Under the pieces are notes generated by a model. The model saw only the letters and a list, made by a program, of their open reading frames with translations, ran no database searches and was not told where the DNA came from. Made by a program: the position numbers and the translations under genes. Below are positions 153-24,729 of a stretch of 34,867 bases of DNA, one piece after another. Numbering within the stretch: the stretch's first letter is position 1; every line of letters starts with the position of its first letter. The stretch is from a virus (Duplodnaviria > Heunggongvirae > Uroviricota > Caudoviricetes). Location: IMG/VR virus record IMGVR_UViG_2684622580_000006; one strand, 5' to 3'.

Positions 153-1745
153 TTACTCGATCCCTTTACTACGCAGGTAATCTTCGTAATTACCGCTAAA
201 GTCGATCACGCGTTCCGGGGTGATTTCCAGAATGCGGGTCGCCAGGGAGCTTACGAACTCACGGTCGTGTGAAACAAAGATCAGCGTGCCCTGATACAGT
301 TCCAGCGCCATGTTCAGTGACTCGATGGATTCCATATCCAGGTGGTTGGTCGGTTCGTCCATGATCAGAATGTTCGGCTTCTGCATCATTAACTTACCAA
401 ACAGCATCCGCCCTTTTTCCCCACCGGAAAGCACTTTAGCTGGCTTTTTGATGTCGTCCTGGCTGAACAGCAAACGACCGAGAATGCTGCGTACCGCCTG
501 CTCGTCATCGCCTTCCTGCTTCCACTGACTCATCCATTCGAACACGGTCAGATCATTTTCAAACTCATATTCGTGGTCCTGGGCGTAGTAACCAATGCGC
601 GCGTTTTCAGACCATTTTACGGTGCCGCTGTCCGGTTGCAGATCGCCCACCAGCGTTTTCAGCAGCGTTGATTTACCGACGCCGTTGGTACCCAGTACCG
701 CAAGTTTTTCACCGACCTCCAGCAGCAGGTTGAGATTTTTAAACAGTGGACCGTTATCAAACCCTTTGGTCAGACCTTCCACTTCCAGCGCGTTACGGAA
801 CAGTTTCTTATCCTGTTCAAAACGGATGAACGGGTTCTGACGGCTGGAGGCTTTCACCTCTTCCAGTTTGATTTTATCAATCTGGCGCGCGCGCGAAGTT
901 GCCTGGCGAGATTTCGAGGCGTTGGCGCTAAAGCGGCTAACGAAAGATTGCAACTCAGCAATCTGCGCTTTCTTCTTGGCGTTATCGGCCAGCAGACGTT
1001 CACGCGCCTGGGTCGCCGCCGTCATGTACTCATCGTAGTTACCCGGATAAACGCGCAGCTCGCCGTAATCCAGATCCGCCATGTGGGTACAGACCATGTT
1101 AAGGAAGTGACGGTCGTGCGAGATGATGATCATGGTGCTGTCACGCTCGTTCAGCACCTGTTCCAGCCAGCGAATGGTGTCGATGTCGAGGTTGTTGGTC
1201 GGTTCGTCGAGCAGGAGAATATCCGGATCAGCAAACAGCGCCTGCGCCAGAAGCACACGCAGCTTCCAGCCAGGAGCAACTTCACTCATCGGGCCGTAGT
1301 GCTGTTCCACTGGAATTCCCACGCCAAGCAACAGTTCACCGGCGCGAGCTTCCGCAGAGTAACCGTCCATTTCGCCGTATTTCACTTCCAGATCGGCCAC
1401 TTTATAGCCGTCTTCTTCACTCATTTCCGGCAAAGCATAGATGCGGTCGCGCTCCTGCTTCACTTCCCACAACTCTTTATGCCCCATGATCACCGTATCC
1501 AGCACAGTGAACTCTTCAAAGGCAAACTGATCCTGACGCAGCTTACCAATGCGCTCGTTGGGATCGAGGGAAACGTTACCCAGCGTCGGCTCAAGGTCGC
1601 CGCCGAGAATCTTCATAAAGGTGGATTTACCACTACCGTTCGCGCCAATCAGGCCGTAACGGTTGCCGCCGCCGAATTTGACGGAAATGTTTTCAAACAA
1701 CGGCTTACTGCCGAACTGCATGGTGATATTGTTGCTAAGAAGCAA
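153..1745 (-). CDS. ybiT: ABC-F family ATPase (YbiT-like), host chromosomal gene
   Basis: 530 aa with two ABC cassettes: Walker [10 protein letters not shown] and GTNGVGKST, signature LSGGE, Walker [12 protein letters not shown] / [12 protein letters not shown]; sequence matches my recollection of E. coli YbiT except the first ~8 residues; GC-rich unlike the rest of the window; reported ORF begins with TTG. Confidence 0.9.
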
Positions 1746-1790
1746 AATTGATACTCTCTGCTAAGTGATTGAAAGGATTAGATTATGCAA
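1715..1790. other. Candidate attL / host-prophage junction overlapping the 5' end of ybiT
   Basis: Abrupt GC-rich to AT-rich transition around 1720-1745; only 39 bp separate the ybiT start from the serine recombinase start; small palindrome ttgctaagaagcaa (1731-1744) and a second tgctaag at 1760-1766. Confidence 0.3.
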
Positions 1791-3290
1791 AAGCAAAACG
1801 GGTTAGCTTACTCATACATACGATTTTCGAGCAAGAAACAAGAACAAGGGGACTCAGTAAGACGACAGACTGAACTTGCTGAAAAATACGCTTCATCGAA
1901 CAATCTTACACTATCTGAAAAGAACTTTCAGGATCTGGGGATCTCAGCGTTCAAAGAAGGAAACAGACCTTCACTCGGTGACATGCTTTCTGCTATCGAG
2001 CAAGGAGCAATCGAATCAGGCAGCACGATAATCATCGAATCACTTGATCGCTTGAGTCGTCGGGGTATCGATGTGACTCAACAGATAATCAAGTCAATCT
2101 TACAACACAACGTCTTTATAGCGAGCCTGACAGACGGTCTGTTACTCAATAGAGAATCAGTTAACGACCTTGTAAGCGTGATTAGAATCGCTCTGGCTGC
2201 TGACCTTGCGCATAAAGAATCGGAGAAGAAATCACAGCGTTTGCGTGAGACAAAACAGCAACAAAGAAAAGCTGCTCTTGAGGGTAAAGTAATCAACAAA
2301 ATACTGCCTTTCTGGTTATCAAGAGAAAAAGACCAGTTTGTTTTCTCTGACAGATTTGACGCAGTGAAAAGAATTATCGAACTAAAGAAAAAGGGACTTG
2401 GGACAAATAAAATAGCTAAGACATTAAACGATGAAGGATTTAAACCATTGCGTTCTGCTGGCTGGAATCATACAACTGTTGGTAAAACTCTAAGTTCAGT
2501 TGCTTTATACGGTGCTTATCAAACATCAGAAACGACGAAAGATAGAAAAGTTATTCTGTTGGATATTATCGATAATTATTATCCAGCAGTAATTAGCAAA
2601 GAAGATTGGATGTTATTACAATCAGACGCAAAGCAGAATAAACCGGGGTATAAGTCAGACAAAAATGCTTTCACAGGGTTATTAAAGCACTCTTGCGGAG
2701 GTGCGTTAGTCAGAAAATTCCATGTTGTTACTGGTAAAACGTATCAATACCATGTTTGTGCTAATGCTCGCGATGGTAAATGCACCGTTACGCAGAATTT
2801 TAAAAACATGGAGATTGCTCTTTATAAAATCTTAAAGCACTTAAAGATGGAGAAGAAAACCTCTGTTGATGCGACAATTGCACAAGAACGCGCTCAATTA
2901 AAAGAGCAAATCGACAACTTGAACGGAATGCTTCTAACAATGAAAAAAGTTCCTATGAGTGTTCTTGAGACAATCGGCAATCTTGAGGAAAAGTTACAGG
3001 AACTCGACCAGCAGTTTAAACAACAATCTGATATGGTATTAGCTGAACAATCAGTCGATTTCAACCTCCTGTCGGAAATCAAAGATCCTATCGAATTAAA
3101 CATGATGCTTAAACGAGTTATAAAAGAAATCACGGTATTTAATCTTAAAAAATCTTGGCGAATAAAAGTTCAGTATCTGAATGGTCATTCTCAGAGTTTC
3201 CGATGGGATGGATATAGTATGAGTTTTGTTTCTGACAGCAAAAAACTACTGGAATACATGAACGCTGAGAAAGAGCAATTGGATAACTAA
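1785..3290 (+). CDS. Large serine recombinase (phage integrase, serine type)
   Basis: N-terminal resolvase-like catalytic domain with the serine motif AYSYIRFSSKKQ...RQ; Cys cluster HSCGG...YHVCANARDGKC (zinc ribbon) and C-terminal coiled coil typical of large serine integrases; sits at the element boundary. Confidence 0.85.
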   Translation: MQKQNGLAYSYIRFSSKKQEQGDSVRRQTELAEKYASSNNLTLSEKNFQDLGISAFKEGNRPSLGDMLSAIEQGAIESGSTIIIESLDRLSRRGIDVTQQIIKSILQHNVFIASLTDGLLLNRESVNDLVSVIRIALAADLAHKESEKKSQRLRETKQQQRKAALEGKVINKILPFWLSREKDQFVFSDRFDAVKRIIELKKKGLGTNKIAKTLNDEGFKPLRSAGWNHTTVGKTLSSVALYGAYQTSETTKDRKVILLDIIDNYYPAVISKEDWMLLQSDAKQNKPGYKSDKNAFTGLLKHSCGGALVRKFHVVTGKTYQYHVCANARDGKCTVTQNFKNMEIALYKILKHLKMEKKTSVDATIAQERAQLKEQIDNLNGMLLTMKKVPMSVLETIGNLEEKLQELDQQFKQQSDMVLAEQSVDFNLLSEIKDPIELNMMLKRVIKEITVFNLKKSWRIKVQYLNGHSQSFRWDGYSMSFVSDSKKLLEYMNAEKEQLDN

Positions 3291-3399
3291 CTACAACCAT
3301 AAATGTAACAATACGTATTGCATTTAACTAAATGTTAACCACATTAATATTTTACGTAGCATCCTTGACAAGCTAACATAAGAAAAAATCAGAACTTCG

Positions 3400-3408
3400 T
3401 GTTTTAAT
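3400..3408 (+). promoter_or_regulatory. Possible extended -10 promoter (TGtTTTAAT) for the 3449 gene
   Basis: TGnTTTAAT about 40 nt upstream of the ATG; AAGGAA Shine-Dalgarno precedes the start; a TTGACA hexamer at 3365-3370 is badly spaced. Confidence 0.25.
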
Positions 3409-3448
3409 CTATTGAGTTTCTTACTCATTAACTTCAAAAGGAATCGAA

Positions 3449-4186
3449 ATGAAATTACCAATTGTTGATGTATTTGAGAACCCATACGAATCCTGGACCT
3501 ACAGAAATGCCAGTCAGGAAGAAATGATGGCTGTCTACAGGGCTACTGGCAAATTTGAAACTCATATCAAAGATAAACTGATTGCAAAAATTAAAAATCA
3601 TTTAGATGCAGCAAAACACATGGCAAAAAGAGGTTCGGATAATGGATTAGAGAATTTCATTGACCGATATCTTGACAATAGCGTCAATTATAAAGAACTA
3701 AGACGCGCTATGCCTTCAAAAACTCCAAAAGTGTTATTTGACTATCAACAAAAATATCCTAATTACTCAGTAACCGAGGTGGATAAAGAAATCAATAGCA
3801 TCGGTCATACACTAAGCGAAGGTCAATATCTTTTTCATGGTGGTGCATGGGTAAATGGAGCATCAAATCAATTCAAATTAACAGCACCACTTTCAACAAG
3901 TTTTTGTCCTCAAGTTGCATTAAGAAATGCTGAATGGAGAGGGAAAGCATATGATAACAATAAAATAGAGTTATTTGTATTACATACAGTGAATCCTATC
4001 ACTAATGTTTTTGCTTTTCCTAGAAAGAATGCAAGTATGGGAAATGAAAAAGAGATTCTTTTTGCATCAGGGGCGACCCTGATTAGGCGAGCCACTCATT
4101 TAATACGTGATGACTATCCGGCTGGAAAATATGAACATAAGGATAAAAAAATCCCAATCTATGTAGTAGAAGTTGACATTTCATAA
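3449..4186 (+). CDS. Hypothetical protein (cargo gene next to the integrase); weak STS...ExE pattern
   Basis: 245 aa ORF with a good SD; contains PLSTSF and NEKEILF spaced as in R-S-E ADP-ribosyltransferases, but the Arg motif is not convincing (FHGG instead). Confidence 0.6.
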   Translation: MKLPIVDVFENPYESWTYRNASQEEMMAVYRATGKFETHIKDKLIAKIKNHLDAAKHMAKRGSDNGLENFIDRYLDNSVNYKELRRAMPSKTPKVLFDYQQKYPNYSVTEVDKEINSIGHTLSEGQYLFHGGAWVNGASNQFKLTAPLSTSFCPQVALRNAEWRGKAYDNNKIELFVLHTVNPITNVFAFPRKNASMGNEKEILFASGATLIRRATHLIRDDYPAGKYEHKDKKIPIYVVEVDIS

Positions 4187-5470: not shown

Positions 5471-5956
5471 ATGGAACTAAACGCAATGCTTCGTTATGAC
5501 GAAGGCGAAAAACTCACGATGTATAAAGACACAGAAGGATATTTCACAATCGGTGTCGGACACTTGATTACAAAAAATCCATCAAGAGACTACGCTTTGA
5601 AAGAACTTGATAAAGCTGTTGGTCATCCTTGTTATGGATATATCACAGCGAAAAAATCTGATCAGTTACTGAATATTGATGTTAACTCAACTCTGCGTCA
5701 GCTTAGTAAAACAGAACTGCATCCAGCTTATATCAGAATCGATACAGCCAGGCGTTCAGCGTTAATCAATATGTGTTTTCAACTCGGCGTTTCTGGCGTA
5801 TGTCAGTTCAAGAAATTCTTGGGATACATGGCTGTTGGAGATTATCAAAATGCGGCTGATGAAGCTTTAGACTCAAGATGGGCACGTCAGACTCCTAATA
5901 GAGCAAAACGTGTAACTGATGTTATTAGATATGGCGATTTCAGAAGTTATAATTAA
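5471..5956 (+). CDS. T4-type lysozyme (endolysin, glycoside hydrolase family 24)
   Basis: 161 aa; N-terminus MLRYDEGEKLTMYKDTEGYFTIGVGH aligns to T4 lysozyme [26 protein letters not shown] with catalytic E11, D20, T26 conserved; C-terminal RWARQTPNRAKRV also matches. Confidence 0.9.
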   Translation: MELNAMLRYDEGEKLTMYKDTEGYFTIGVGHLITKNPSRDYALKELDKAVGHPCYGYITAKKSDQLLNIDVNSTLRQLSKTELHPAYIRIDTARRSALINMCFQLGVSGVCQFKKFLGYMAVGDYQNAADEALDSRWARQTPNRAKRVTDVIRYGDFRSYN

Positions 5957-6309: not shown

Positions 6310-6597
6310 ATGTTAAAAGTTACTGGTCTTGATAAGCTTCAGAAAGAACTCAAGGATGCAAAGCGTATACTGAGTGAGCTGGATGGCGAGCTAGGAGTCG
6401 TAAAGTTTAACCCTAACGACCCTGCTAGCATCGAGTCGGCAATTCAAACAGTTAATCACATGATTGATGAACGCATTGGCGGATGTTCAACCAACTCCAT
6501 AGTCGGCTCGCTTGCGCAGCAGATGAAGGAAACATACAGAGAAGGCATTCTTAAAAAAGCTGCCGAAGCCAGATTGACTTCAAGTGAGGATGAGTAA
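6310..6597 (+). CDS. Small protein (95 aa), first gene of a two-gene cargo operon
   Basis: ATG at 6310 preceded by GAAGGTG; the track ORF starts at TTG 6298; stop overlaps the next ATG by 1 nt (TAATG). Confidence 0.6.
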   Translation: MLKVTGLDKLQKELKDAKRILSELDGELGVVKFNPNDPASIESAIQTVNHMIDERIGGCSTNSIVGSLAQQMKETYREGILKKAAEARLTSSEDE

Positions 6598-7493
6598 TGG
6601 CTCAAGATATTTTTTCTGAAATGAACAATGCTGTTCTGGATTTACAGGCTTCACAATACCAGACCTTTGAACGTCCACTCAAAAAGCTTGCTCAGCTTCT
6701 AAAACATTCCGATCTTGAATCATACAATGCAGACCTGACTGAAGGACTCAATCTTACAGAGTTTCTCGCAGAAAGTGAGAAGACTGGAGGAAGTATGGCT
6801 GGGAGTGCCCAGCTTGTCTGGCCAGATGATGCAAGAAAAACACTAGGCCTTACATTACTTTTGATTTTTAAGTTAGCAGAAGATCCTAATTATGCAATCA
6901 ACTTTGGACATCATTTTTTCTATTCCGGAAGTAAAGTTATAGCAGGCATTCATTCGATTACAGGACAACTTATCATTCCTTTCGTTAGAGATTACAAAAA
7001 TTATGTTCAGTCTAAGGGAAGCACAGAAACTATGTTGAAGCCGCAGTTTTCGAACAAAGTTTTCATTGTTCATGGTCATGATGATGGCGCCCGTGAAACA
7101 GTCGCAAGGTTTCTTGAACGTATAGGTTTAGAAGCAATCATATTACATGAGCAAGCTAATCAGGGACGAACTGTCATTGAGAAAGTTATAGCAAATAGTG
7201 ATGTTGGATTTGCTGTTGTATTGCTAACACCAGATGATGAAGGTTGTGCTAAAGGAGGAATACCAGAACCAAGGGCAAGGCAGAATGTAATGCTAGAATT
7301 AGGATATTTTATCGGGCGTTTAGGCAGAGAGAAAGTATGTGCACTAAAACGCGGCTCACTAGATATTCCAAGTGATTTTGCTGGGGTTGTTTGGGAAAAT
7401 ATGGATAGCAGTGGAGGCTGGAAGCAAGCACTCGCACGAGAACTTGAAGCTGCTGGTCACAATATTGATTGGAATAAAGCAATGCGGAGTTGA
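6597..7493 (+). CDS. Protein with a C-terminal TIR-like nucleotide-binding domain (COG4271 / PF10137-like); candidate defence effector
   Basis: C-terminal segment KVFIVHGHDDGARETVARFLERIGLEAIILHEQANQGRTVIEKVIANSDVGFAVVLLTPDDEG matches the consensus I remember for the 'predicted nucleotide-binding protein containing TIR-like domain' family; the N-terminal ~150 aa are unrecognised. Confidence 0.55.
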   Translation: MAQDIFSEMNNAVLDLQASQYQTFERPLKKLAQLLKHSDLESYNADLTEGLNLTEFLAESEKTGGSMAGSAQLVWPDDARKTLGLTLLLIFKLAEDPNYAINFGHHFFYSGSKVIAGIHSITGQLIIPFVRDYKNYVQSKGSTETMLKPQFSNKVFIVHGHDDGARETVARFLERIGLEAIILHEQANQGRTVIEKVIANSDVGFAVVLLTPDDEGCAKGGIPEPRARQNVMLELGYFIGRLGREKVCALKRGSLDIPSDFAGVVWENMDSSGGWKQALARELEAAGHNIDWNKAMRS

Positions 7494-11264: not shown

Positions 11265-11428
11265 TATTTGATGTCCTTTTTAACAGGTTGAGTTCTGATA
11301 TTTCGTTTCTTGCAAGCGTTATATAGCGTTGCTTTGTTCATCTGTTTAGATTCTGCAATCTGCTGAAATGTCTCACCAGCATCTAGACGTGATTCGATTT
11401 CAAATTTGTTTGGAATAAACTTTGCCAT
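11264..11428 (-). CDS. Small HTH DNA-binding protein (54 aa), below the ORF-track size cutoff
   Basis: Hand translation MAKFIPNKFEIESRLDAGETFQQIAESKQMNKATLYNACKKRNIRTQPVKKDIK; resolvase/Hin-type HTH; stop overlaps the ATG of the 202-aa gene (TAATG). Confidence 0.5.
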   Translation of the reverse strand: MAKFIPNKFEIESRLDAGETFQQIAESKQMNKATLYNACKKRNIRTQPVKKDIK

Positions 11429-11451
11429 TTGGTTGCCTTTTTATGATGTTG

Positions 11452-11477
11452 AAAAAAGAGCGCTCTTGCGAGCGCTT
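11452..11477 (-). terminator. Intrinsic terminator oriented for minus-strand transcription
   Basis: Stem agcgctc / gagcgct with loop ttgc; plus-strand A-run at 11452-11457 gives a U-tract on the minus-strand RNA; sits in the leader of the HTH operon. Confidence 0.45.
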
Positions 11478-11491
11478 CAAACTTTAAGGAA
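11476..11491 (+). repeat. 16-bp direct repeat ttcaaactttaaggaa, copy 1
   Basis: Identical to 12404-12419; contains an AAGGA ribosome-binding site followed by a 7-codon micro-ORF. Confidence 0.6.
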
Positions 11492-12403
11492 TTTTTAAAT
11501 GAACTTATCGTTGTTCACATAGCTATTTTATATCGGCTATTCGATAGCGTAAACAAAGAGAGAAAACAACGAGGAGAAGAAACTCTCTATTGTTCTTCAT
11601 AGGGTATTTAGTGCCCTCACCGAAAGTGTAAGCAAAATTTTTAAAATAATTTGAAAGCAATCGGAGCAAACGTATCGATGCACTGATAAAACGCATCGAT
11701 AGCGCATCGATGCTTCTCGGCAAAGCGCATGGACCTTGAAGAAAATCGCCCTATAAGAACAATTGGATAAAGATGATATGGAAGGATATAGAAGCAGTAA
11801 ACACTACAAAACCAGATCTGAAAAACAGATTTCGCGAAGCGCGGGCGAAGCCCTAATTAATAACATTAGCGCGTAAGCGCGACAGATAGAAGTTAATCAA
11901 CATCGCTATGATCATAGATGTTGAACTTGATGATCAGTAATTATTACTAGATACGATTATTAGCGCTTCGCGCGTTCGCTACGCTCACAATATTGTTTTC
12001 TGATCATAATCAATAACTTCTAACTGCATTATAACCAGATCTGAAAACCTGATAAACTTAACTATCGTTAATTAAATCAGATAGCGTTAGTGAGTTCTCC
12101 ATCGCTTCGCTCAGTCGAACGGGCAAGCGCCGTCTTTGATAGAGATCTGGTCTTTATCGTTTTAGCTGACCTTATCGTCCCTCCTCGCTTCTCCCTGCTC
12201 TACTGACCATCTTGATACACCTTGTTCATCTATACCAGCCAAATTGAACCTGATGCACCCTGCTTTGATACCGACCTTGATTGTTGTCGCTTCGCCTGCG
12301 GCTCGCTTACCACCGTTATTGAATCGGACCAATAGAGATTCCTAGTTTACTAAATACAAGCGTGATTCAGAGAAACATCTGAAAGTCAACACTTCTATTC
12401 AAA
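11492..12403. other. About 0.9 kb non-coding, repeat-rich region (candidate ncRNA, iteron origin, or insertion remnant)
   Basis: No credible ORF; three GCATCGAT palindromes at 11676-11716; two aaccagatctgaaaa repeats (about 11810 and 12035); several CGCTTCGC-like motifs. Confidence 0.4.
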
Positions 12404-12419
12404 TTCAAACTTTAAGGAA
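12404..12419 (+). repeat. 16-bp direct repeat ttcaaactttaaggaa, copy 2 (RBS of the homing endonuclease gene)
   Basis: Identical to 11476-11491; immediately precedes the ATG at 12427. Confidence 0.6.
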
Positions 12420-12426
12420 ACTCAAA

Positions 12427-13041
12427 ATGTACAAAAGAACTATCAACAACGTAACTTACAAAACCCGTTCTGAACTGGATACTGAGCCAACCGGATTCAG
12501 CGTTTATAAAACCGTTTTCAGTATCAACAATGAATCATTCGTTTATTACGGCAAACAAGCTTTCAACGGTCAGCCTGATATGTCGTATATCGGTTCTGGT
12601 CGCAGAGTTCAGGAAAAACTCGCTGAAATGACCGAGTCAGATATCGTTTATAAAATCGTTCTACAGAATTTTGAATCAGAACAAGAAGCGTATGACTTCG
12701 AATCTGAATGCATTCAATCAGCACGCAAATCGAAGGTTAATATTTTAAATATATCTAAAGGAAACTCCGGTGGTAAGGTCTTTGACAAAATGACAGAAGA
12801 ACAAATTAAACAACGTAACGCGAAAATCTCTATGAGCATGATGGGTCACGAAGTCTCTGATGAAACTCGTCGTAAAATCTCAGAAGCGAAATCTGGTCAG
12901 ACTCGCTCTGATAATACGAAACAAAAAATCGGTGATGCTCTGCACGGTCGCAAAACTGGACCTAAATCAGAAGAAACCAAACGCAGAATGTCAGAAGCAC
13001 ATAAAGCACGTCACGCTAACAAGGAGACAGCGAATGTCTAA
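12427..13041 (+). CDS. GIY-YIG homing endonuclease with NUMOD3-like repeats (Seg / I-TevI-like)
   Basis: 204 aa; N-terminal GFSVYK...FVYYGKQ...YIGSGRR (GIY-YIG spacing) and C-terminal repeats HEVSDETRRKISEAKSG / SEETKRRMSEAHK typical of NUMOD3. Confidence 0.75.
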   Translation: MYKRTINNVTYKTRSELDTEPTGFSVYKTVFSINNESFVYYGKQAFNGQPDMSYIGSGRRVQEKLAEMTESDIVYKIVLQNFESEQEAYDFESECIQSARKSKVNILNISKGNSGGKVFDKMTEEQIKQRNAKISMSMMGHEVSDETRRKISEAKSGQTRSDNTKQKIGDALHGRKTGPKSEETKRRMSEAHKARHANKETANV

Positions 13042-13285
13042 AACTCAGCAGTTTCTAAGACCTGTTATCGTTGCGCTTGTTGTCGTAGGAGGTTGCGCTA
13101 TTGAATCGTGTAGCAGCACAGTATCAAAAGAATCGATTATAAAGCGTGACATCATATGCGCAAATCAGGAGTACAATCCTAAAACTGCAAAGCATGACAT
13201 TGAAATGTGCCGAAAGGGATTCAACAAAAAAGGGAGCATCAGCTCCCTTTTATCATTTAAATCCATGAACCAGCAGCTGCTCTAA
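13034..13285 (+). CDS. Small lipoprotein (83 aa), candidate superinfection-exclusion or spanin-like protein
   Basis: ATG at 13034 preceded by AAGGAG; signal peptide MSKTQQFLRPVIVALVVVGG followed by the lipobox Cys (VVGGC); the track ORF 12860-13285 is an artefactual upstream extension. Confidence 0.6.
   Translation: MSKTQQFLRPVIVALVVVGGCAIESCSSTVSKESIIKRDIICANQEYNPKTAKHDIEMCRKGFNKKGSISSLLSFKSMNQQLL
13226..13253. terminator. Bidirectional terminator hairpin gggagc-atca-gctccc embedded in the 3' end of the lipoprotein ORF
   Basis: 6-bp stem flanked by an A-run (13226-13231) and a T-run (13248-13251); for the minus strand it sits right after the stop of the 59-aa ORF. Confidence 0.45.
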
Positions 13286-13432
13286 TCTCTTCTCTAGCAA
13301 CTTGTTCGCTGAATCTTCGCTGAAGATGATTGATTGAACGTCACAGTCGGTTTTCAGTCTTAATGCTGCATCATCAACCGACATACGTTCGTTTTGTACA
13401 TCACCATTTTTGTAAATAACTTTAACAATCAT
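13253..13432 (-). CDS. Small protein (59 aa), convergent with and overlapping the 3' end of the lipoprotein gene
   Basis: Hand translation MIVKVIYKNGDVQNERMSVDDAALRLKTDCDVQSIIFSEDSANKLLEKRLEQLLVHGFK; AAGGAG 6 nt upstream of the ATG; terminator right after the stop. Confidence 0.4.
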   Translation of the reverse strand: MIVKVIYKNGDVQNERMSVDDAALRLKTDCDVQSIIFSEDSANKLLEKRLEQLLVHGFK

Positions 13433-13500
13433 GCTTGCTCCTTAGCATTGTTTGAAACATGATGATTTCACATTTCAACTTATATCTCAATCTACATACA

Positions 13501-13528
13501 GAAAATGGGAGCATTAGCTCCCATTTTT
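13501..13528. terminator. Intrinsic terminator downstream of the minus-strand HTH gene
   Basis: atgggagc-atta-gctcccat hairpin flanked by aaaa and ttttt. Confidence 0.5.
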
Positions 13529-13929
13529 CATTGTGAACCTCCATTTGTTTTATTGGTACAGCGTAAAAACTGATCGCGTATATACGCTTTTGATTTACCT
13601 GTCATTCGCTTACCGAATTCAATGAAATCTCCTTTCGTCTGACGATAAACAATCAAACTGATTTCAGAAGGTTTTTTGTGAGCACTATTTGATGCTAGCT
13701 GTTTTTCAATGTTCGGGATTTCTGATTCTTTAACTTCACCAGCTTCAATTTCAGAAGCAATAACTTCCTCTTCAACTGGCTTCACAGTGTATTTTTCAAT
13801 ATTTGCTTTAACGCGACGAACAACAGAGCGGGAAACTTCAAATTGTTCAGCAATCTTACGTTCTGATAAATCTGTTCCTGCGTTAATCATTGCAGCTATT
13901 TTATTTTCGATAGTCGGTTCAGTTTTCAA
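13528..13929 (-). CDS. HTH DNA-binding protein (133 aa), divergent from the large terminase gene
   Basis: N-terminal HTH AGTDLSERKIAEQFEVSRSVVRRV; TTG start with GGAG 8 nt upstream. Confidence 0.55.
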   Translation of the reverse strand: MKTEPTIENKIAAMINAGTDLSERKIAEQFEVSRSVVRRVKANIEKYTVKPVEEEVIASEIEAGEVKESEIPNIEKQLASNSAHKKPSEISLIVYRQTKGDFIEFGKRMTGKSKAYIRDQFLRCTNKTNGGSQ

Positions 13930-14039
13930 TTCGATGTTCTCCGTGTTGAGATGGATTGAACTTTAACAATCCAGGTCCGAGGTGCAAGCGTCCTGAAAAT
14001 TATTTGTTGGATTCTTCATAAATACACTCAGAGGTGACT

Positions 14040-15923
14040 ATGAAAAGTATCAACAAATTAAAGAAAATCATTAAAGCATCAAAAATTTTTATCATGCCTC
14101 CTGCTGATTACACGCCGTCAGAATGGGTCGAACAGAACTTAATCTTCCCTGATGGACCATATGCGGATCAGCCAATGCGACTTTTTGAGTTCCAGCGCGG
14201 AATGATTGACGCTATCAAAGGCAATAAGAAGAAAATCGTTCTTATGACTTCTGCACAGATCGGCAAAACGACGATTCTGAACGGTGTTCTGTTCTATAAA
14301 TCAGCTATAGATCCAGGCAACGCGGGTGTTTTACAGTCTACAGCGAAAGAAACGACACAATGGTTATCAGGTAAAATTAAACCGATGATTGATGCATCGG
14401 AAGAAATGCAGAAAATCGTTACTGATAAAAACGACAGAAATGCAGTTAATAACACCAGTCAGATTCAGCTACGAAATGGTGGTTTCTGGTATTTCATGAG
14501 TTTGAACTCTCCTTCTCACTTGCGTGGTAAAACTCTGCCATTGCTTCTGCTTGATGAAGTTGATGCTGTCGATACTGATACAGAAGAAGGCAACCCAATA
14601 ATGATTGCCGAACAGCGTGCAACAACTTTCGGTTCAGACGCTCGAATCTTTATCAGTTCGACGCCTACTGGCAAATACGGTGCCATCAATACTCAATACG
14701 AAGCATCCGATAGACGTAAATTCCATATCGATTGTCCTCATTGTGGTCGTTCTCATGAACTCGTTTGGGAAAACATTAAATTCGATTGGATTAAACATGA
14801 TGGTAAATCAGTACCAGATCCAGAAACTGCGCGTCTTGAATGTCCTTCTTGTAATGAAGCAATCTCAGAAGCACAACGAGCAAGAGCATTAGCAAACGGT
14901 AATTGGATTGTGACTAATCCAGAAGCTGATACAGCAGGATTCCATGTAAGTCGTTTATACAGTCCTATGAGTTCAATAAAATCTGTCGTTCAAGATTTCA
15001 AAAATGCTTATCAAACATTCAGTTTGTCAACGTTCTATAACACCGTATTAGGTCTGCCTTTTGATGATCTGAACGAGGATGTGGAAATCAGTAAATTAAA
15101 CGAACTGAAAACTGATATCAGTATCAGAAATATTCCAGAAGATTGTCTTTTCTTAACTGCGGGTGTTGACCAACAGCAAGACCGTTTAGAAGTAACCTTG
15201 ATGGGTCACAACGAACGAACCGTTTATATTCTTGCACATCGTAGCTTTATGACAATGAACGCTGAGGTTATCGATTCCCCTGCTTATAAAGAACTTCTTG
15301 CATACGTTAAAGCACCGTTCAGAACAGCTTTGGGAAGAAAGGTTCCTTTAGCGTGGGTGAACGTCGATAGCTCAAACGGTCGAGCAACTAAAACAATCTA
15401 TCGTTTCTGCTCTCAGTGGACAAACCTGAAAGCAATTAAAGGTGCCAGCTCAGTTGATGCCCCTTATGTTCCAACGAAAATCACGAAAACCGGTGGTTAT
15501 GAACTTTATATGATTGGTGTAAACCAAGGAAAAAACTTAGTTCGTGAACTGCTAAACAGAAGCGTGAAATCTGGAAATACACCAGTCAGAGTCGAAATCT
15601 CTGATGATGTTCCAGATGATTACTGCGAACAGCTTATGTCCGAAGAATTAAAACGCTCTGGCAATACTGTTAGATGGGTTATTAAACAAGGCGGTGTTCG
15701 TAACGAAGGTCTTGACTGCTTTAACTACGGTTATTGTGCGCGTCTGCAAGTTCTAGAGAAAATCAAATTTCACGAGTGGAGGAAACTCGCTGCTAAATCT
15801 GATATTGAAATGCCAGAAGAACAAAACGAAACAAATTCTCCTGTTATTCAAACTCCTGAACCACGTCGAAACATTATCAAACGAAACAGACCAGTTAATA
15901 AGCCTCGTGGTTTCGGATTATAA
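14040..15923 (+). CDS. Terminase large subunit (lambda gpA family)
   Basis: Walker A-like SAQIGKTT; FHIDCPHCGRSHELVW...ECPSCNEAI aligns to the lambda gpA zinc-ribbon region FHVACPHCGEEQYL; NEGLDCFNYGYCARL aligns to gpA NEALDCFVYALAAL; ATG 14040 with a GAGGTG SD (track start is GTG 14034). Confidence 0.9.
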   Translation: MKSINKLKKIIKASKIFIMPPADYTPSEWVEQNLIFPDGPYADQPMRLFEFQRGMIDAIKGNKKKIVLMTSAQIGKTTILNGVLFYKSAIDPGNAGVLQSTAKETTQWLSGKIKPMIDASEEMQKIVTDKNDRNAVNNTSQIQLRNGGFWYFMSLNSPSHLRGKTLPLLLLDEVDAVDTDTEEGNPIMIAEQRATTFGSDARIFISSTPTGKYGAINTQYEASDRRKFHIDCPHCGRSHELVWENIKFDWIKHDGKSVPDPETARLECPSCNEAISEAQRARALANGNWIVTNPEADTAGFHVSRLYSPMSSIKSVVQDFKNAYQTFSLSTFYNTVLGLPFDDLNEDVEISKLNELKTDISIRNIPEDCLFLTAGVDQQQDRLEVTLMGHNERTVYILAHRSFMTMNAEVIDSPAYKELLAYVKAPFRTALGRKVPLAWVNVDSSNGRATKTIYRFCSQWTNLKAIKGASSVDAPYVPTKITKTGGYELYMIGVNQGKNLVRELLNRSVKSGNTPVRVEISDDVPDDYCEQLMSEELKRSGNTVRWVIKQGGVRNEGLDCFNYGYCARLQVLEKIKFHEWRKLAAKSDIEMPEEQNETNSPVIQTPEPRRNIIKRNRPVNKPRGFGL

Positions 15924-21897: not shown

Positions 21898-24729
21898 ATG
21901 GCAAATAACAAAGTTAAACATTATAGAACAGACGTCGCCGGAAGAAAGCCAGAAGCAAAAAACATGCTTGATGGTGAAATCGCTATTAACTTAGCCGATC
22001 GAAAGATTTTCACTAAATTCGGTGACGCTGTTATTAACATCGGTAATGGTGCCGACGCTGTTGTTGAAGGTAGTCAGACCTTTACTGGCAAAATTAAAGC
22101 AAGTGATATTGAATCCGATTCGAATCTGACTTTAAAAAATCTTGATAAAAGCGATATTGTTTTTGCTGATGAACACGGTAAAGCAAAAGCACGTATTAGT
22201 TCTCCTGCTCAGACAGACTCTAAAGGTGAACTTCGTGTTACGGTAGCGAAAGGAAAAGCTACAGGAGAGAGTTCTGACTTCGTGCTTAACGGTAATGGTC
22301 AGTTATCTTTGCCTGCTGCTCCTGTTGCTCCTGATAGCGCTACGCGTAAAGATTACGTTGATTCTGAAATCAGCAAAGTTCAAACAGGTTCAAGTGCTGA
22401 CCTGACGAAACTCGAACAGAAAGTTGATGCTAACGACGCTGCTATTAACACTCGCGTTGATAATCTGAATTCAAAAGTTGACCAGAACGACACGGCTATT
22501 AATACGAAAGTTGATGCGAATAAAGCTGATGCTGACGAAAAGATTAAAGCAGTTAATGACCGTTTGACTGTTGATAATCAGACTCTGAAAGACATGATTG
22601 ACACCAAAGTTAATAAAGCTGGCGACACGATGACTGGCGACTTAACTGTTCCTAAGTTAAATGCTACTGACATTAGAACCACAAAGATGCTCGTTACAAC
22701 TAATCCTGTTGAAGCTAACGCTCTTGGTGATAACTCTATTGCTATGGGTGATGGTGATACAGGTCTGAAATGGCAATCTGATGGCAAATTGCAATCATGG
22801 TCGAATAATATTCCTGTAACAGAACTTGATAAGTCTGAAATCAAATTTAATAGAAACGCAACCTTTCGTTTCAGAAGCGATAACGGTGAAATTGACTTGA
22901 TGACTCCTGATGGTATGAGTCTTGTTAAAATTGATACTACGAAAGACGGTAATAACACTGGCGATTCTATCAGTTATCTGGGACTTGTTAACTCAGGAAA
23001 ATATAATCACTATCTGAGAGGCACAGGCAGAACTTATATTGATACTCACGAAGGTCTCGGTGTTGCTGGTCCTACAAGTTTCTATCAGACTATTTTTAAC
23101 AACAAAGGACACGGAAGCTACGATAGTGAATCATTGCCTATTTGGACTGATGCTGGATTTCAGACAAATCATCTTCGTAAACTTAGAGCTAGAGACGCCG
23201 CTACAATTTTTCATGAAGCTGTTGTTGGTGATCATGAAGATCCTAGAGCTAGACAATCGATAAGTTGGTGGCATGGCAATGGTCCTGAAACTTTCATTGC
23301 CTCGATGCAACAGGATGGAACAATTAACGCATATCGTTTTAATACGTCGGCTGAATATGAAGCGATTAATCTAAAAACGAAAAATCGCGAAGCTGCATAT
23401 ATTAGAGGCACAGACGGTGACAAAACCTCATGGTTATTTGGTCGTTTGAATCCCGGTGATAACAGGTTAATTGCTCGTTCTACTATCGACCAAGACGGAA
23501 GTTCTACTGTTGACTTGGAGTTGGATTCAGGAAGCAAATACTTCGGTGTTAATGTTGGTGGGAATAGAATTGCAAGATTTCATGAAAAGAATATTATTAT
23601 CGACGGAAGAAAATGGGCTGCAGACAATAGTCACGCGTGGGCAGACCAATGGAATCAACTTCCTCCTGTTGCTATAGAATTTGGTGCTGTTCCTGCTGCG
23701 AGTGATTATTATCCTGGTTATGCGTTACAAAGTAGCTCTGTTGGTTTTGGTTATTCAACTCGATTCGAACTTGGTATGATTCGTGCTCCTGCTGATCAAT
23801 TCGGTAAAGGTATTCTTCGTGTAGGAACATATGAAGAAGGTGCGTCGAAGAGAATGGCGAATTACGAGTTTGATATTGACGGAAGATTCGCAGTTCCTGG
23901 TAAAATTAATACTCCTTACGTGGAAACCGATCGTTTAACAAGCTTTGGTGTTCATACTAATAACTTGCTTGGTGGAAACTCTATTGCTTTCGGTGACCAA
24001 GATACGGGTATTCGTCAAAGATTCGACGGAAACTTAGAGATTATTACAGATTCGCTTCATCTGGCTACGTTTAATCCTTCAGGCTTAACTATTAATGATC
24101 GTATGATTTCAGTTAACGCTCCCAATAATTCTCGCGGTATTTACGTTGGAAATGTGAGAACTGGTAATGCTAATGCGATGATTCAAGGTCAAGTCGATGG
24201 ATGGGCTGATTGGGGTGCATGGCGTGATCGTCCTGCGGGAATGACCGTTGAAGCTCCTACTCGTTCGAAATGTATTAATATCTGGAAACATGTTCACTGG
24301 GGCACTGAATGGGGCGCTGCGATGGACGTTTATAATCCCGACGGTGCAGGTCCTGAAGCCCAATTACACGTTGGTGGTGCAAACTATCATTTCAGCGGTA
24401 ACGGAACAGCAAACGCCATTTCTTGGGTTAGCACTTCTGATAAACGTCTGAAATCAAATTTTGAAGAAATTGAAAACGCGGTTGATAAAGTCGAGAAACT
24501 TACTGGTTACGTATACGATAAGAAATCTGATTTAGTCGAAACTGAATATTCATTCGAAGTTCGTGAAGCAGGTATTATCGCTCAAGAATTGCAAGAGGTT
24601 CTTCCAGAAGCTGTTAGTTCTTTCGGACCTGACAAAATTCTTGGTGTTAACTCTGCTGCTGTAAACGCGTTGTTGGTTAATGCTATCAAGGAATTAAGTG
24701 CTCGCGTTAAAGAACTTGAAGCTAAATAA
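21898..24729 (+). CDS. Tail fiber / tailspike with a C-terminal S74 intramolecular chaperone (self-cleaving) domain
   Basis: 943 aa; imperfect repeats VDANDAAINTRVDNLNSKVDQNDTAINTKVD and GDTMTGDLTV; C-terminus SWVSTSDKRLKSNFEEIENAVDKVEKLTGYVY...GIIAQELQEVLPEAVS...LLVNAIKELSARVKELEAK is the classic peptidase S74 chaperone signature. Confidence 0.8.
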   Translation: MANNKVKHYRTDVAGRKPEAKNMLDGEIAINLADRKIFTKFGDAVINIGNGADAVVEGSQTFTGKIKASDIESDSNLTLKNLDKSDIVFADEHGKAKARISSPAQTDSKGELRVTVAKGKATGESSDFVLNGNGQLSLPAAPVAPDSATRKDYVDSEISKVQTGSSADLTKLEQKVDANDAAINTRVDNLNSKVDQNDTAINTKVDANKADADEKIKAVNDRLTVDNQTLKDMIDTKVNKAGDTMTGDLTVPKLNATDIRTTKMLVTTNPVEANALGDNSIAMGDGDTGLKWQSDGKLQSWSNNIPVTELDKSEIKFNRNATFRFRSDNGEIDLMTPDGMSLVKIDTTKDGNNTGDSISYLGLVNSGKYNHYLRGTGRTYIDTHEGLGVAGPTSFYQTIFNNKGHGSYDSESLPIWTDAGFQTNHLRKLRARDAATIFHEAVVGDHEDPRARQSISWWHGNGPETFIASMQQDGTINAYRFNTSAEYEAINLKTKNREAAYIRGTDGDKTSWLFGRLNPGDNRLIARSTIDQDGSSTVDLELDSGSKYFGVNVGGNRIARFHEKNIIIDGRKWAADNSHAWADQWNQLPPVAIEFGAVPAASDYYPGYALQSSSVGFGYSTRFELGMIRAPADQFGKGILRVGTYEEGASKRMANYEFDIDGRFAVPGKINTPYVETDRLTSFGVHTNNLLGGNSIAFGDQDTGIRQRFDGNLEIITDSLHLATFNPSGLTINDRMISVNAPNNSRGIYVGNVRTGNANAMIQGQVDGWADWGAWRDRPAGMTVEAPTRSKCINIWKHVHWGTEWGAAMDVYNPDGAGPEAQLHVGGANYHFSGNGTANAISWVSTSDKRLKSNFEEIENAVDKVEKLTGYVYDKKSDLVETEYSFEVREAGIIAQELQEVLPEAVSSFGPDKILGVNSAAVNALLVNAIKELSARVKELEAK

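Follow-up and report, generated by a model that had tools for sequence, protein, structure and literature searches.

Two small genes converge in the 34,867-nt stretch of phage DNA analysed here (the window), and the plus-strand gene reads across a strong hairpin into the 3' end of its partner. This arrangement raises the question of whether the overlap is a control device, as a preliminary description of the DNA had suggested, and of what the small lipoprotein-type product of the plus-strand gene might do. Taken as a whole, the probable explanation is a two-way terminator in a prophage, an unnamed lipoprotein family and a lost stop codon that led to an accidental overrun.

The prophage locus and its two proposed converging units

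The window represents the integrase-proximal arm of a temperate phage, a prophage of E. coli and Enterobacter. We assign it to a prophage because positions 153-3290 hold an ABC-F gene of the host together with a large serine recombinase, because the region is 100% identical in four complete E. coli chromosomes, and because homologues are carried by contigs of several hundred kb to 5 Mb from Enterobacter and Serratia. A megablast search of positions 12400-14000 against phage records gave no match. The closest phage by TerL is Escherichia phage DCP80, just 52% identical, whose record begins at the terminase and thus offers no useful context. No tRNAs were found in the window, and nothing in it reached an Rfam gathering score.

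The layout of the locus (Table 1) suggests two transcription units that face each other just upstream of the terminase gene and would meet at a single two-way intrinsic terminator. The plus-strand unit would consist of the GIY-YIG/NUMOD3 gene and, behind it, the small lipoprotein gene, which has a strong ribosome-binding site to itself. The minus-strand unit, of which the HTH gene is the first gene, would continue into variable cargo, here the 59-aa gene with a terminator copy on either side. The last 8 nt of the 204-aa ORF are shared with the beginning of the lipoprotein ORF, and no promoter of its own is evident for the lipoprotein gene. A GIY-YIG/NUMOD3 gene lies upstream of the lipoprotein-family gene in all relatives with sufficient flank, although direct adjacency is not constant. 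The lipoprotein gene is flanked by the GIY-YIG/NUMOD3 gene on one side and, towards the terminase region, by the 59-aa gene, the HTH gene and TerL; the tail-fibre gene (21898-24729) is 8.6 kb away, and the sole lysozyme-like gene in the window (5471-5956) is 7 kb away. The same accessory-gene arm also holds a PDC-S35/TIR-like candidate defence gene (PADLOC), and AAA_21/HNH genes occur in this arm in relatives.

Table 1. Positions of the genes, signals and hairpins at the convergent junction, with the basis for each.
Feature	Position	Strand	Basis
GIY-YIG/NUMOD3 homing-endonuclease-like gene, 204 aa	12427-13041	+	Pfam NUMOD3 1.6e-9; PHROG 314 homing endonuclease 4.8e-18; PADLOC HEase
AAGGAG Shine-Dalgarno, 7 nt ahead of lipoprotein ATG	13021-13026	+	read directly; invariant in alignment A1
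Lipoprotein ORF, ATG start, 83 aa	13034-13285	+	read directly
Putative signal peptide, lipobox VVGG followed by Cys21 (codon 13094-13096)	13034-13096	+	regex match to PS51257 pattern
Conserved 68-codon body: signal and two-cysteine core (C42...C59)	13034-13237	+	family alignments A4, A5
Two-way intrinsic-terminator-type hairpin, AAAAGGGAGC-ATCA-GCTCCCTTTT, 10-bp stem	13228-13251	both	folding and motif enrichment
Clade-specific tail, 15 codons (ISSLLSFKSMNQQLL) and stop	13238-13285	+	missing in every other clade
59-aa protein gene, convergent with lipoprotein gene	13253-13432	-	homologues; dN/dS; PGAP WP_053264338.1
AAGGAG Shine-Dalgarno of 59-aa gene, 5 nt ahead of ATG	13438-13443	-	read directly; invariant in A1
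Second terminator copy, core GGGAGC-ATTA-GCTCCC (13507-13522), directly past HTH gene stop	13502-13532	both	repeat search family D1; folding
GntR-type HTH gene, 133 aa as listed (relatives called 126-130 aa)	13528-13929	-	Pfam GntR 3.6e-6; PGAP name

The minus-strand ORF and its Shine-Dalgarno sequence are present as first described. Its homologues in Escherichia, Enterobacter, Citrobacter and Serratia are always 59 aa long, and its dN/dS is 0.06-0.17; because of this ratio and this constant length, the ORF is, by comparative criteria, a genuine gene. A borderline PADLOC match of its product to REase_II (E = 0.0023) was not credited.

A lipoprotein-type gene of an unnamed family

The preliminary description had read an 83-aa lipoprotein with the lipobox VVGGC, and the ORF is found where it was placed. 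We looked for a charged n-region, an uncharged hydrophobic h-region and a lipobox of the form [LIVMFWSTAG]2-[LIVMFYSTAGCQ]-[AGS]-C with the cysteine at residues 15-35; the test for PROSITE PS51257 was our own regular expression of the pattern. The 83-aa ORF has all of these features. Its signal sequence, MSKTQQFLRPVIVALVVVGG followed by C21, carries K3 and R9 in the n-region and the hydrophobic core VIVALVVVGG, and the expression matches at Cys21. With Ala at +2, the lipoprotein should be destined for the outer membrane; we infer its lipidation and localisation from this signal. The AF2 model of the 83-aa protein is poor (pLDDT 50, with the tail below 50), and that of the 68-aa core, built with 15 sequences, is a helical hairpin of only moderate confidence (pLDDT 66). 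The core of roughly 30 residues is thus predicted to form a helix-loop-helix that one disulfide could staple.

The protein belongs to an unnamed family of envelope mini-proteins, 54-70 aa long in all 15 other members, which combine a lipobox or membrane anchor with a two-cysteine core of about 30 residues. Both core cysteines are invariant across the family. Most relatives carry the lipobox LTAC at the family-wide Cys26, whereas the window protein has its lipobox at Cys21; P0002 has both sites and represents an intermediate. A lipobox has been kept although its position shifted. The regular expression matches 12 of the 17 family members and a looser lipobox is seen in two more, while three distant members have no cysteine in the signal region and only a hydrophobic anchor, indicating that lipidation is not family-wide. 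Between clades, the dN/dS of the core is 0.07-0.41, mostly 0.1-0.3. Because of this low ratio, the invariant core and the retained lipobox, the identification of the 83-aa ORF as a real lipoprotein-type gene is supported. Every related prophage examined has a family gene. Contig counts place the family on more than 300 contigs; in IMG/VR it is carried by only three.

Comparison with known proteins gave the family no name. Pfam, PHROGs, NCBIfam and PADLOC returned nothing at significance or at curated cut-offs; matches to smalltalk (0.048), EexN (0.1) and DUF1240 (0.026) are at chance level and far short of the cut-offs. In an exhaustive HMMER search, P0015 (2657 aa, 41 stretches, signal region only) and P0022 (1019 aa) were dropped as spurious. 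Searching phage records by tblastn with both small proteins gave no match at E <= 1, and none of the 78 matches to lipoprotein peptide patterns in GTDB representative genomes was confirmed. The family profile found no match at E <= 10 among all PDB chains, a set that should include the published FhuA-Llp structure. Finally, Foldseek with the 68-aa core model (pLDDT 66) gave nothing under E = 4 against the PDB and BFVD, a search in which so small a helical hairpin is unlikely to match specifically.

Within the window clade, the dN/dS of the lipoprotein gene is about 1.0 between the window and L011 and 0.67 between the window and L002; most values for the neighbouring genes are 0.15-0.20, and the HTH gene reaches 0.51 in the comparison with L002. 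Between the window and L011, the lipoprotein core shows 2 synonymous versus 11 non-synonymous codon differences, compared with 41 versus 29 in three neighbouring genes (Fisher p = 0.006). The lipoprotein dN is not above that of the neighbours; it is the dS that is low. This non-synonymous excess could reflect diversifying selection or decay instead of a stably maintained function. Decay would mean that the gene of the window clade is a relic that has lost its stop codon, its original lipobox and selection, and we regard this as unlikely. The high dN/dS, the missing ancestral stop, a Glu at -2 of the ancestral Cys26 lipobox, the frameshifted tails of two alleles (P0028 and P0029) and the failure of PGAP to call the ORF in E. 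coli RefSeq genomes would all agree with it. However, no amino-acid change falls on a family-invariant position, the 68-codon body is free of stops and frameshifts in all alleles seen, a new pattern-conforming lipobox has arisen at Cys21 with an intermediate that keeps both sites, the strong ribosome-binding site is invariant, and the ratio is raised through low dS and not through dN.

The predicted two-way terminator and the probable loss of a stop codon

The strong hairpin that had been placed inside the 3' end of the lipoprotein gene is confirmed by folding. Its core, GGGAGC-ATCA-GCTCCC, lies at 13232-13247, and A/T pairs lengthen the stem to 13228-13251. The predicted energy is -18.8 kcal/mol on the plus-strand RNA (z = -5.4) and -24.0 kcal/mol on the minus-strand RNA (z = -7.8); none of 200 shuffles folds as well. 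The window contains three occurrences of the motif, where 0.01 would be expected. On each strand the stem is followed by a T-run (TTTTATCATTT on plus, TTTTTTGTTG on minus), so that a stable GC-rich stem-loop with a U-tract is found in each direction. The proposal that the hairpin terminates the 59-aa gene is therefore supported as far as its form on the minus strand is concerned. A simple terminator scanner omitted the hairpin at 13228-13251, probably because the A/T extension of the stem consumes the T-run. A sub-threshold Rfam match of the hairpin to STnc320 (22.7 bits, where the cut-off is 50; E = 0.37) was set aside as a terminator-like chance match.

A hairpin is conserved at the convergent junction of the relatives. 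The stem is kept with a variable loop (ATCA, TAAT, ACTA or AGCAA) across L002, L011, L021/L022 and L028, where it is imperfect, and unrelated hairpins take the same position in L023-L025 and in the Serratia prophages L013 and L016. In the window, the element is also duplicated: positions 13227-13257 and 13502-13532 form a 31-nt direct repeat of 87% identity, spaced by 275 nt and bracketing the 59-aa gene. The hairpin resembles the two-way (A-tract/U-tract) intrinsic terminators known between convergent genes, such as the tonB-P14 terminator (cited in PMC4824070): it has a GC-rich 6-bp stem with an A-run and a T-run and lies between convergent units. However, here one ORF crosses the terminator, and the element has its second copy 275 nt away.

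The lipoprotein and 59-aa ORFs overlap by 33 nt (13253-13285), as originally noted. Where the lipoprotein gene is the last on its strand, the relatives stop just before the hairpin (L021-L025) or in its loop (L011/L012). In L021/L022, a TAA 4 nt ahead of the stem gives a protein of 68 aa; in L023-L025, a TAA or TGA abuts a different hairpin; and in the sister lineage L011/L012, a TAA in the loop ends the protein at 68 aa, and the ORFs do not overlap. The window clade alone is without that stop and extends 15 codons further; in this clade, the stretch from the Cys59 codon to the stem is also 9 nt shorter. The ends vary further among alleles. The tails of P0028 and P0029, which belong to the same 90% cluster, are frameshifted; P0040 of the LTAC clade is consistent with an independent loss of the stop and reads across the hairpin; and P0036 and P0041 have still other, differing ends. 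Because the tails of close alleles are frameshifted or different and P0040 appears to have lost its stop independently, the tail and the overlap would be unconserved by-products. The combination of overlap and intra-ORF hairpin is restricted to the window clade, so it is not a conserved module.

The partners also differ. In L028 the 59-aa gene faces a 184-aa gene, and in Serratia prophages it sits in another arrangement; in neither does a lipoprotein gene converge on it. In L021-L025, the slot opposite the lipoprotein gene is filled by other cargo. Because the 59-aa gene faces other genes elsewhere and other cargo holds this slot, the lipoprotein and 59-aa genes, judged by their gene orders, do not form a fixed pair. 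Their overlap has the look of an evolutionary accident, a by-product of the lost stop, instead of a control device.

In the sequence of events that we propose, loss of the stop would let translation run through 15 unselected codons, past the hairpin and over the last 33 nt of the convergent gene. Ribosomes crossing the hairpin would partly suppress termination on the plus strand; some transcripts would then read through and be antisense to the 59-aa gene, and others would be non-stop. Here we infer both termination at the hairpin and translation of the tail. An engineered counterpart has been described by Li et al. 2016 (PMC4824070): in the construct W38p, a frameshift put the stop codon 38 bp downstream of the U-tract, and about 40% of the termination efficiency was retained. 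The window resembles W38p in that its stop codon ends 34 nt past the last base of the extended stem; however, W38p is an engineered reporter. In the same study, a terminator a few bp past the stop codon was almost completely repressed (PMC4824070). An effect of the overrun on termination and antisense transcription is thus expected as a physical side effect and not as a conserved switch.

A true control device would go further: translation of the lipoprotein would melt the hairpin and let read-through silence the 59-aa gene by antisense RNA or polymerase collision, while termination would leave a non-stop mRNA subject to tmRNA tagging and degradation. The geometry of the overlap and the intra-ORF hairpin is real, terminators in published reporter assays lose efficiency when translation runs up to or across them (PMC4824070), and E. 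coli and Enterobacter hormaechei frequently carry the extended allele. Nevertheless, we consider such a device improbable: the overlap is missing in the sister lineage and in all other clades, the tails vary by frameshift inside one 90% cluster, and the two genes are unlinked elsewhere. Furthermore, relatives with the hairpin have their stop 0-4 nt from it, where repression by ribosomes is expected regardless of any overrun. The suggestion that antisense or termination-based control is the purpose of the overlap thus finds no support in the comparison. The extended allele is nonetheless the common form, its 90% cluster being found on more than 150 contigs, so the extension might bring a benefit.

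Since the comparative data make the overlap a by-product of a lost stop, it matters little as a regulatory curiosity. The lost stop has a practical consequence for annotation: PGAP annotated the 68-aa relatives and the 59-aa gene and left the 83-aa ORF uncalled in the E. coli genome inspected, and the overrun thus makes an automated pipeline miss a real gene. The locus is also a natural counterpart of the engineered construct with its stop past the terminator, and a comparison of its natural 68-aa and 83-aa alleles could reveal how far translation affects a two-way terminator in its native context.

Possible functions of the lipoprotein

T5 Llp and the Cor lipoproteins of T1, phi80 and N15 are superinfection-exclusion lipoproteins that inactivate FhuA. 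The preliminary description had likened the window protein to them, and the likeness holds for size and for the predicted lipidation but extends no further. Like Llp and Cor, the window protein is a small phage lipoprotein with an N-terminal cysteine predicted to be lipidated at the outer membrane, and the two conserved cysteines of its family could form one intramolecular disulfide, as Cys11 and Cys58 do in Llp (PMC9586334). Exclusion of this kind, in which an outer-membrane lipoprotein binds its own phage's receptor on the periplasmic side and thereby prevents adsorption or DNA entry, is possible but doubtful here. It would suit a small prophage lipoprotein with two conserved cysteines, encoded in an accessory arm together with the candidate defence gene (and, in relatives, the AAA_21/HNH genes), with a non-synonymous excess between close alleles and with a family gene in each of the related prophages examined, just as T5-like phages have llp. 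On the other hand, Pfam, PHROGs, NCBIfam, the PDB profile search and Foldseek revealed no resemblance in sequence or fold to Llp or any other known protein, and the lipid-anchor cysteine is missing from some family members. The window protein is a predicted helical hairpin with a mature core of only 43-48 aa, compared with 61 aa in Llp (PMC9586334). In T5, llp is the next gene downstream of pb5, which encodes the receptor-binding protein (PMC9586334), whereas the lipoprotein gene of the window is not adjacent to its tail-fibre gene or to other receptor-binding or tail-tip genes.

Two other phage lipoproteins offer comparisons. Lambda bor is a lambdoid 'moron' lipoprotein gene, and the window gene resembles it as a small prophage lipoprotein gene in an accessory position with its own terminator. 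However, the two share no sequence similarity, the window gene overlaps its upstream ORF and has no evident separate promoter, and its family is present in all related prophages examined and not sporadically. An outer-membrane spanin of the Rz1 type, acting in the phage lysis system, would likewise be a small lipoprotein with cysteines and a predicted outer-membrane location. Rz1 proteins are proline-rich, whereas the mature part of the window protein has one proline; an overlapping or adjacent inner-membrane spanin partner is absent, the neighbours being the endonuclease-like gene and the convergent 59-aa gene; and the only lysozyme-like gene is 7 kb away. We therefore rejected a spanin identity, which has very little probability.

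Our best guess, offered tentatively, is that the lipoprotein is an envelope factor expressed from the prophage, for example in superinfection exclusion or receptor modification, by a mechanism unlike that of Llp and Cor. A more specific version of this guess, which we think distinctly unlikely as a whole, would make the family a new class of prophage envelope proteins: a disulfide-stapled hairpin of about 30 residues on a lipid or hydrophobic anchor, performing exclusion or receptor modification unrelated to Llp and Cor. An arms race would then lie behind the amino-acid excess and the move of the lipobox, and loss of the stop could couple translation to read-through and antisense silencing of the 59-aa gene. 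In summary, the family comprises widespread, very small prophage envelope proteins of Escherichia, Enterobacter and Serratia, and it provides a clean candidate for new superinfection-exclusion or lysogenic-conversion functions.

Prophage setting of the locus

The window comes from a temperate phage, as follows from the host ABC-F gene and serine recombinase at its edge, its identity to chromosomal DNA and the occurrence of its relatives as prophages. The 1.7 kb around the lipoprotein locus shows 100% identity to four complete Escherichia coli chromosomes, close relatives come from Enterobacter hormaechei contigs as long as 5 Mb, and the more distant ones are Serratia prophages, likewise with ABC-F and serine recombinase genes alongside. 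Among the phage records of the collection searched, no close DNA-level phage match was found, and the best match to the large terminase (TerL) is 52% identical. The ABC-F/serine recombinase pair at the junction occupies 153–3290 in the window and 941–4074 in the related Serratia prophage loci L016–L019. The prophage appears to integrate by means of this recombinase, beside the host ABC-F ATPase gene.

Positions of the main features in the window
Feature	Position	Strand	Remarks
Host ABC-F ATPase gene	153-1745	-	window edge
Large serine recombinase	1785-3290		next after ABC-F gene; accessory genes follow
204-aa ORF, endonuclease-like	12427-13041	+	NUMOD3 motifs; matches homing-endonuclease families
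83-aa lipoprotein ORF	13034-13285	+	ATG eight nt before the stop of the 204-aa ORF, overlapping its end
59-aa ORF	13432 to 13253	-	AAGGAG 5 nt upstream of ATG
GpA-type large terminase (TerL)	14034-15923		then portal, protease-capsid, tail fibre and tape-measure genes
Long tail fibre gene	21898-24729

Upstream of the endonuclease-like gene, some otherwise near-identical prophages carry an AAA_21/AAA_15 ATPase gene instead (L003, 1360–3193; L007, 195–1370), beside which L003 has an HNH gene; the L007 locus ends inside the adjacent ORF. From these replacements, this arm can be seen as an exchange hotspot for accessory and defence genes. The 298-aa product of 6597–7493 (+) is hit by PDC-S35, a candidate defence family of PADLOC (E = 1e-70), and by TIR effector models (E = 6e-13); its gene is probably a prophage-borne anti-phage defence gene. 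About 1.1 kb directly upstream of the endonuclease-like gene (11265–12426) is without any ORF of at least 60 aa, is 74–88% conserved in related Enterobacter prophages and in part in Serratia (77% over 216 nt), and gave no Rfam or tRNA match; it may contain a cos/pac site, act in regulation or encode an unknown RNA. The endonuclease-like ORF itself shows, by our reading by eye, a GIY...YIG-like spacing (FVYYGKQ...SYIGSG). Its position upstream of the lipoprotein-family gene is constant from Escherichia to Serratia prophages (10413–11036 in L013). Such constancy is unusual among mobile endonucleases and suggests domestication.

The lipoprotein family

Every sequence detail of the preliminary description proved correct on re-reading: the 83-aa ORF with its lipobox, the hairpin in its 3′ end, and the convergent 59-aa ORF with its Shine–Dalgarno sequence and 33-nt overlap. 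The lipoprotein ATG is preceded at 7 nt by AAGGAG, and the N-terminus (MSKTQQFLRPVIVALVVVGG, then Cys) agrees with a lipoprotein signal pattern at Cys21. Alanine at position +2 directs lipoproteins to the outer membrane in enterobacteria (the Lol rule), so outer-membrane sorting is predicted here. Word-indexed and exhaustive HMMER searches gave about 20 distinct relatives of 54–70 aa. In the family alignment (A5), C42, Y47, P49, A52, I56, C59 and R60 are invariant and L15, T51 and D55 nearly so; between-clade dN/dS is 0.07–0.41, mostly 0.1–0.3. These comparisons mark the 83-aa ORF as a genuine gene, the member of a family that has no name as yet. The family gene was found in every related prophage examined, each time downstream of the endonuclease-like gene. 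In the RefSeq/PGAP annotation of E. coli NZ_AP027790.1 (L029), the endonuclease-like, 59-aa and HTH genes are called and the 83-aa ORF (3135–3386) is not; its 68-aa relatives carry WP_ accessions. The omission is probably due to the double overlap.

In most members the lipobox is a canonical LTAC, placed at the family-wide Cys26. In the window clade, which has the extended 83-aa type of protein, Glu occupies position -2 of Cys26 and a new lipobox, VGGC, lies at Cys21 (13094–13111 spans the two cysteines). P0002, compared alongside P0007, is an intermediate allele in which both sites are usable, and three distant members have a hydrophobic N-terminus alone. That the lipid-anchor signal was retained although it moved from Cys26 to Cys21 is good evidence that lipidation is under selection. 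An AF2 model from 15 sequences (pLDDT 66) places helices at 32–43 and 52–60, bearing both invariant cysteines; one disulfide could staple this small helix-loop-helix.

A probable two-way terminator and its overrun

The hairpin AAAAGGGAGC-ATCA-GCTCCCTTTT at 13228–13251 spans lipoprotein codons 65–72 and ends 2 nt, in its extended stem, from the 59-aa ORF. The folding energy of its RNA is -18.8 kcal/mol for the + strand and -24.0 kcal/mol for the - strand (z = -5.4 and -7.8; 0/200 shuffles as stable), and the window has three copies of its core motif where 0.01 would be expected. In L021/L022 (~50% aa identity), the 68-aa gene ends with TAA 4 nt ahead of the same stem, whose loop is ACTA; in L023–L025 the stop directly adjoins a longer, unrelated hairpin with the same A-run/T-run layout; in Serratia another hairpin, AAAGGGACTC-AATC-GAGTCCCTTT, lies between the two convergent units. 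In L026–L028, a co-directional gene follows the lipoprotein-family gene and no hairpin comes after the latter. The position is kept while the sequence changes and the stem is kept while loops change, a pattern that speaks for selection on the structure itself. The proposal that the hairpin terminates the 59-aa ORF is supported by fold energies, motif enrichment and conserved position, with a wider role: it is probably a conserved two-way terminator serving both convergent units.

The 59-aa ORF has homologues of exactly 59 aa in Escherichia, Enterobacter, Citrobacter and Serratia, a dN/dS of 0.06–0.17 and a PGAP annotation, and is a real, independent gene. The terminator element stands on either side of it as a 31-nt direct repeat (13227–13257 and 13502–13532; 87% identity, 275 nt apart), the second copy directly following the HTH gene as its putative terminator; this suggests that the 59-aa gene came in as a cassette, the terminator being duplicated in the process. 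An exact 13-nt repeat, AACTTTAACAATC, occurs in its first codons (13418–13430) and in the divergent HTH/TerL intergenic region (13959–13971), beside a second partial repeat (13328–13339 and 13950–13961). Elsewhere the partners differ. In L028 a 184-aa gene lies opposite the 59-aa gene, with a similar hairpin between the two, and in Serratia the 59-aa gene lies between genes for a secreted 134-aa protein and a 65-aa protein. The slot opposite the lipoprotein gene in L021–L025 holds 84–86 aa ORFs, 124–127 aa ORFs (with a signal-peptide-like N-terminus in L021/L022) and a YadA-anchor protein.

Outside the extended alleles of the window clade, family members end at 54–70 aa, with few exceptions such as P0040. 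The Cys59 codon and the stem are 21 nt apart in the window clade versus 30 nt in L021, and the 9 missing nt include L021's stop position. In the sister lineage L011/L012 (84% aa identity), the loop TAAT gives an in-frame TAA, hence 68 aa and no overlap. This loop (hairpin 452–467 in L011; cf. 13232–13247) corresponds exactly to the reverse complement of the ATTA loop in the second window copy (13507–13522), and could have arisen by template switch or inversion within the perfect palindrome. Two members of the 90% cluster to which the window belongs, P0028 (77 aa) and P0029 (74 aa), carry tails altered by frameshift. P0040 of the LTAC clade (86 aa, ending STNKKKGSASSLFGIYRISILA) is the expected product of a TAA-to-AAA change, consistent with independent read-through of the hairpin. 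P0036 and P0041 have yet other ends. The G-S-x-S-S-L segment is the palindrome translated, nothing more. The overrun therefore seems specific to the window clade, and the C-terminal end labile and unconstrained.

In E. coli reporters, a terminator a few bp past the stop codon was almost completely repressed by the ribosome, and ~40% of efficiency was kept when the stop codon was shifted to 38 bp downstream of the terminator (PMC4824070). These results imply that translation of the lipoprotein ORF would probably make + strand termination weak in all hairpin-bearing alleles, ancestral-stop ones included; in the 83-aa allele, some transcripts would be non-stop messages that engage tmRNA, and some read-through transcripts would be antisense to the 59-aa gene. 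We regard these as side effects, because the overrun is unconserved and the partner gene changes. The preliminary description is partly upheld: a real lipoprotein-type gene, a hairpin of terminator form and a real 59-aa gene stand, and the overlap as an antisense or termination-based control device does not, given a clade-limited overrun, frameshifted tails and a varying partner. The hairpin within the ORF and the overlap are best read as having arisen by accident in evolution, the two-way terminator being an ordinary one.

Function of the lipoprotein

The suggested kinship with T5 Llp and Cor found no support beyond size, lipidation (predicted here) and a possible disulfide. There was no credible match in Pfam, PHROGs, NCBIfam or PADLOC, none in the PDB by sequence, and none for the model in the PDB or BFVD by Foldseek. 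Llp has 61 mature residues and a Cys11–Cys58 disulfide, and its gene adjoins that of the receptor-binding protein pb5 (PMC9586334); the arm that holds the gene studied here has many accessory and candidate defence genes. Between the window and L011, the lipoprotein core has 2 synonymous versus 11 non-synonymous codon differences, compared with 41 versus 29 in neighbouring genes (Fisher p = 0.006); the numbers are small, and the excess comes from low dS, not high dN. None of the changes falls at an invariant position. This pattern is only suggestive of diversifying selection or relaxed constraint. That the gene is decaying is improbable, and that it encodes a spanin highly improbable, both less likely than an envelope-acting factor. 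For the lipoprotein, an envelope-acting prophage factor, for example in superinfection exclusion, is our best, though tentative, guess.
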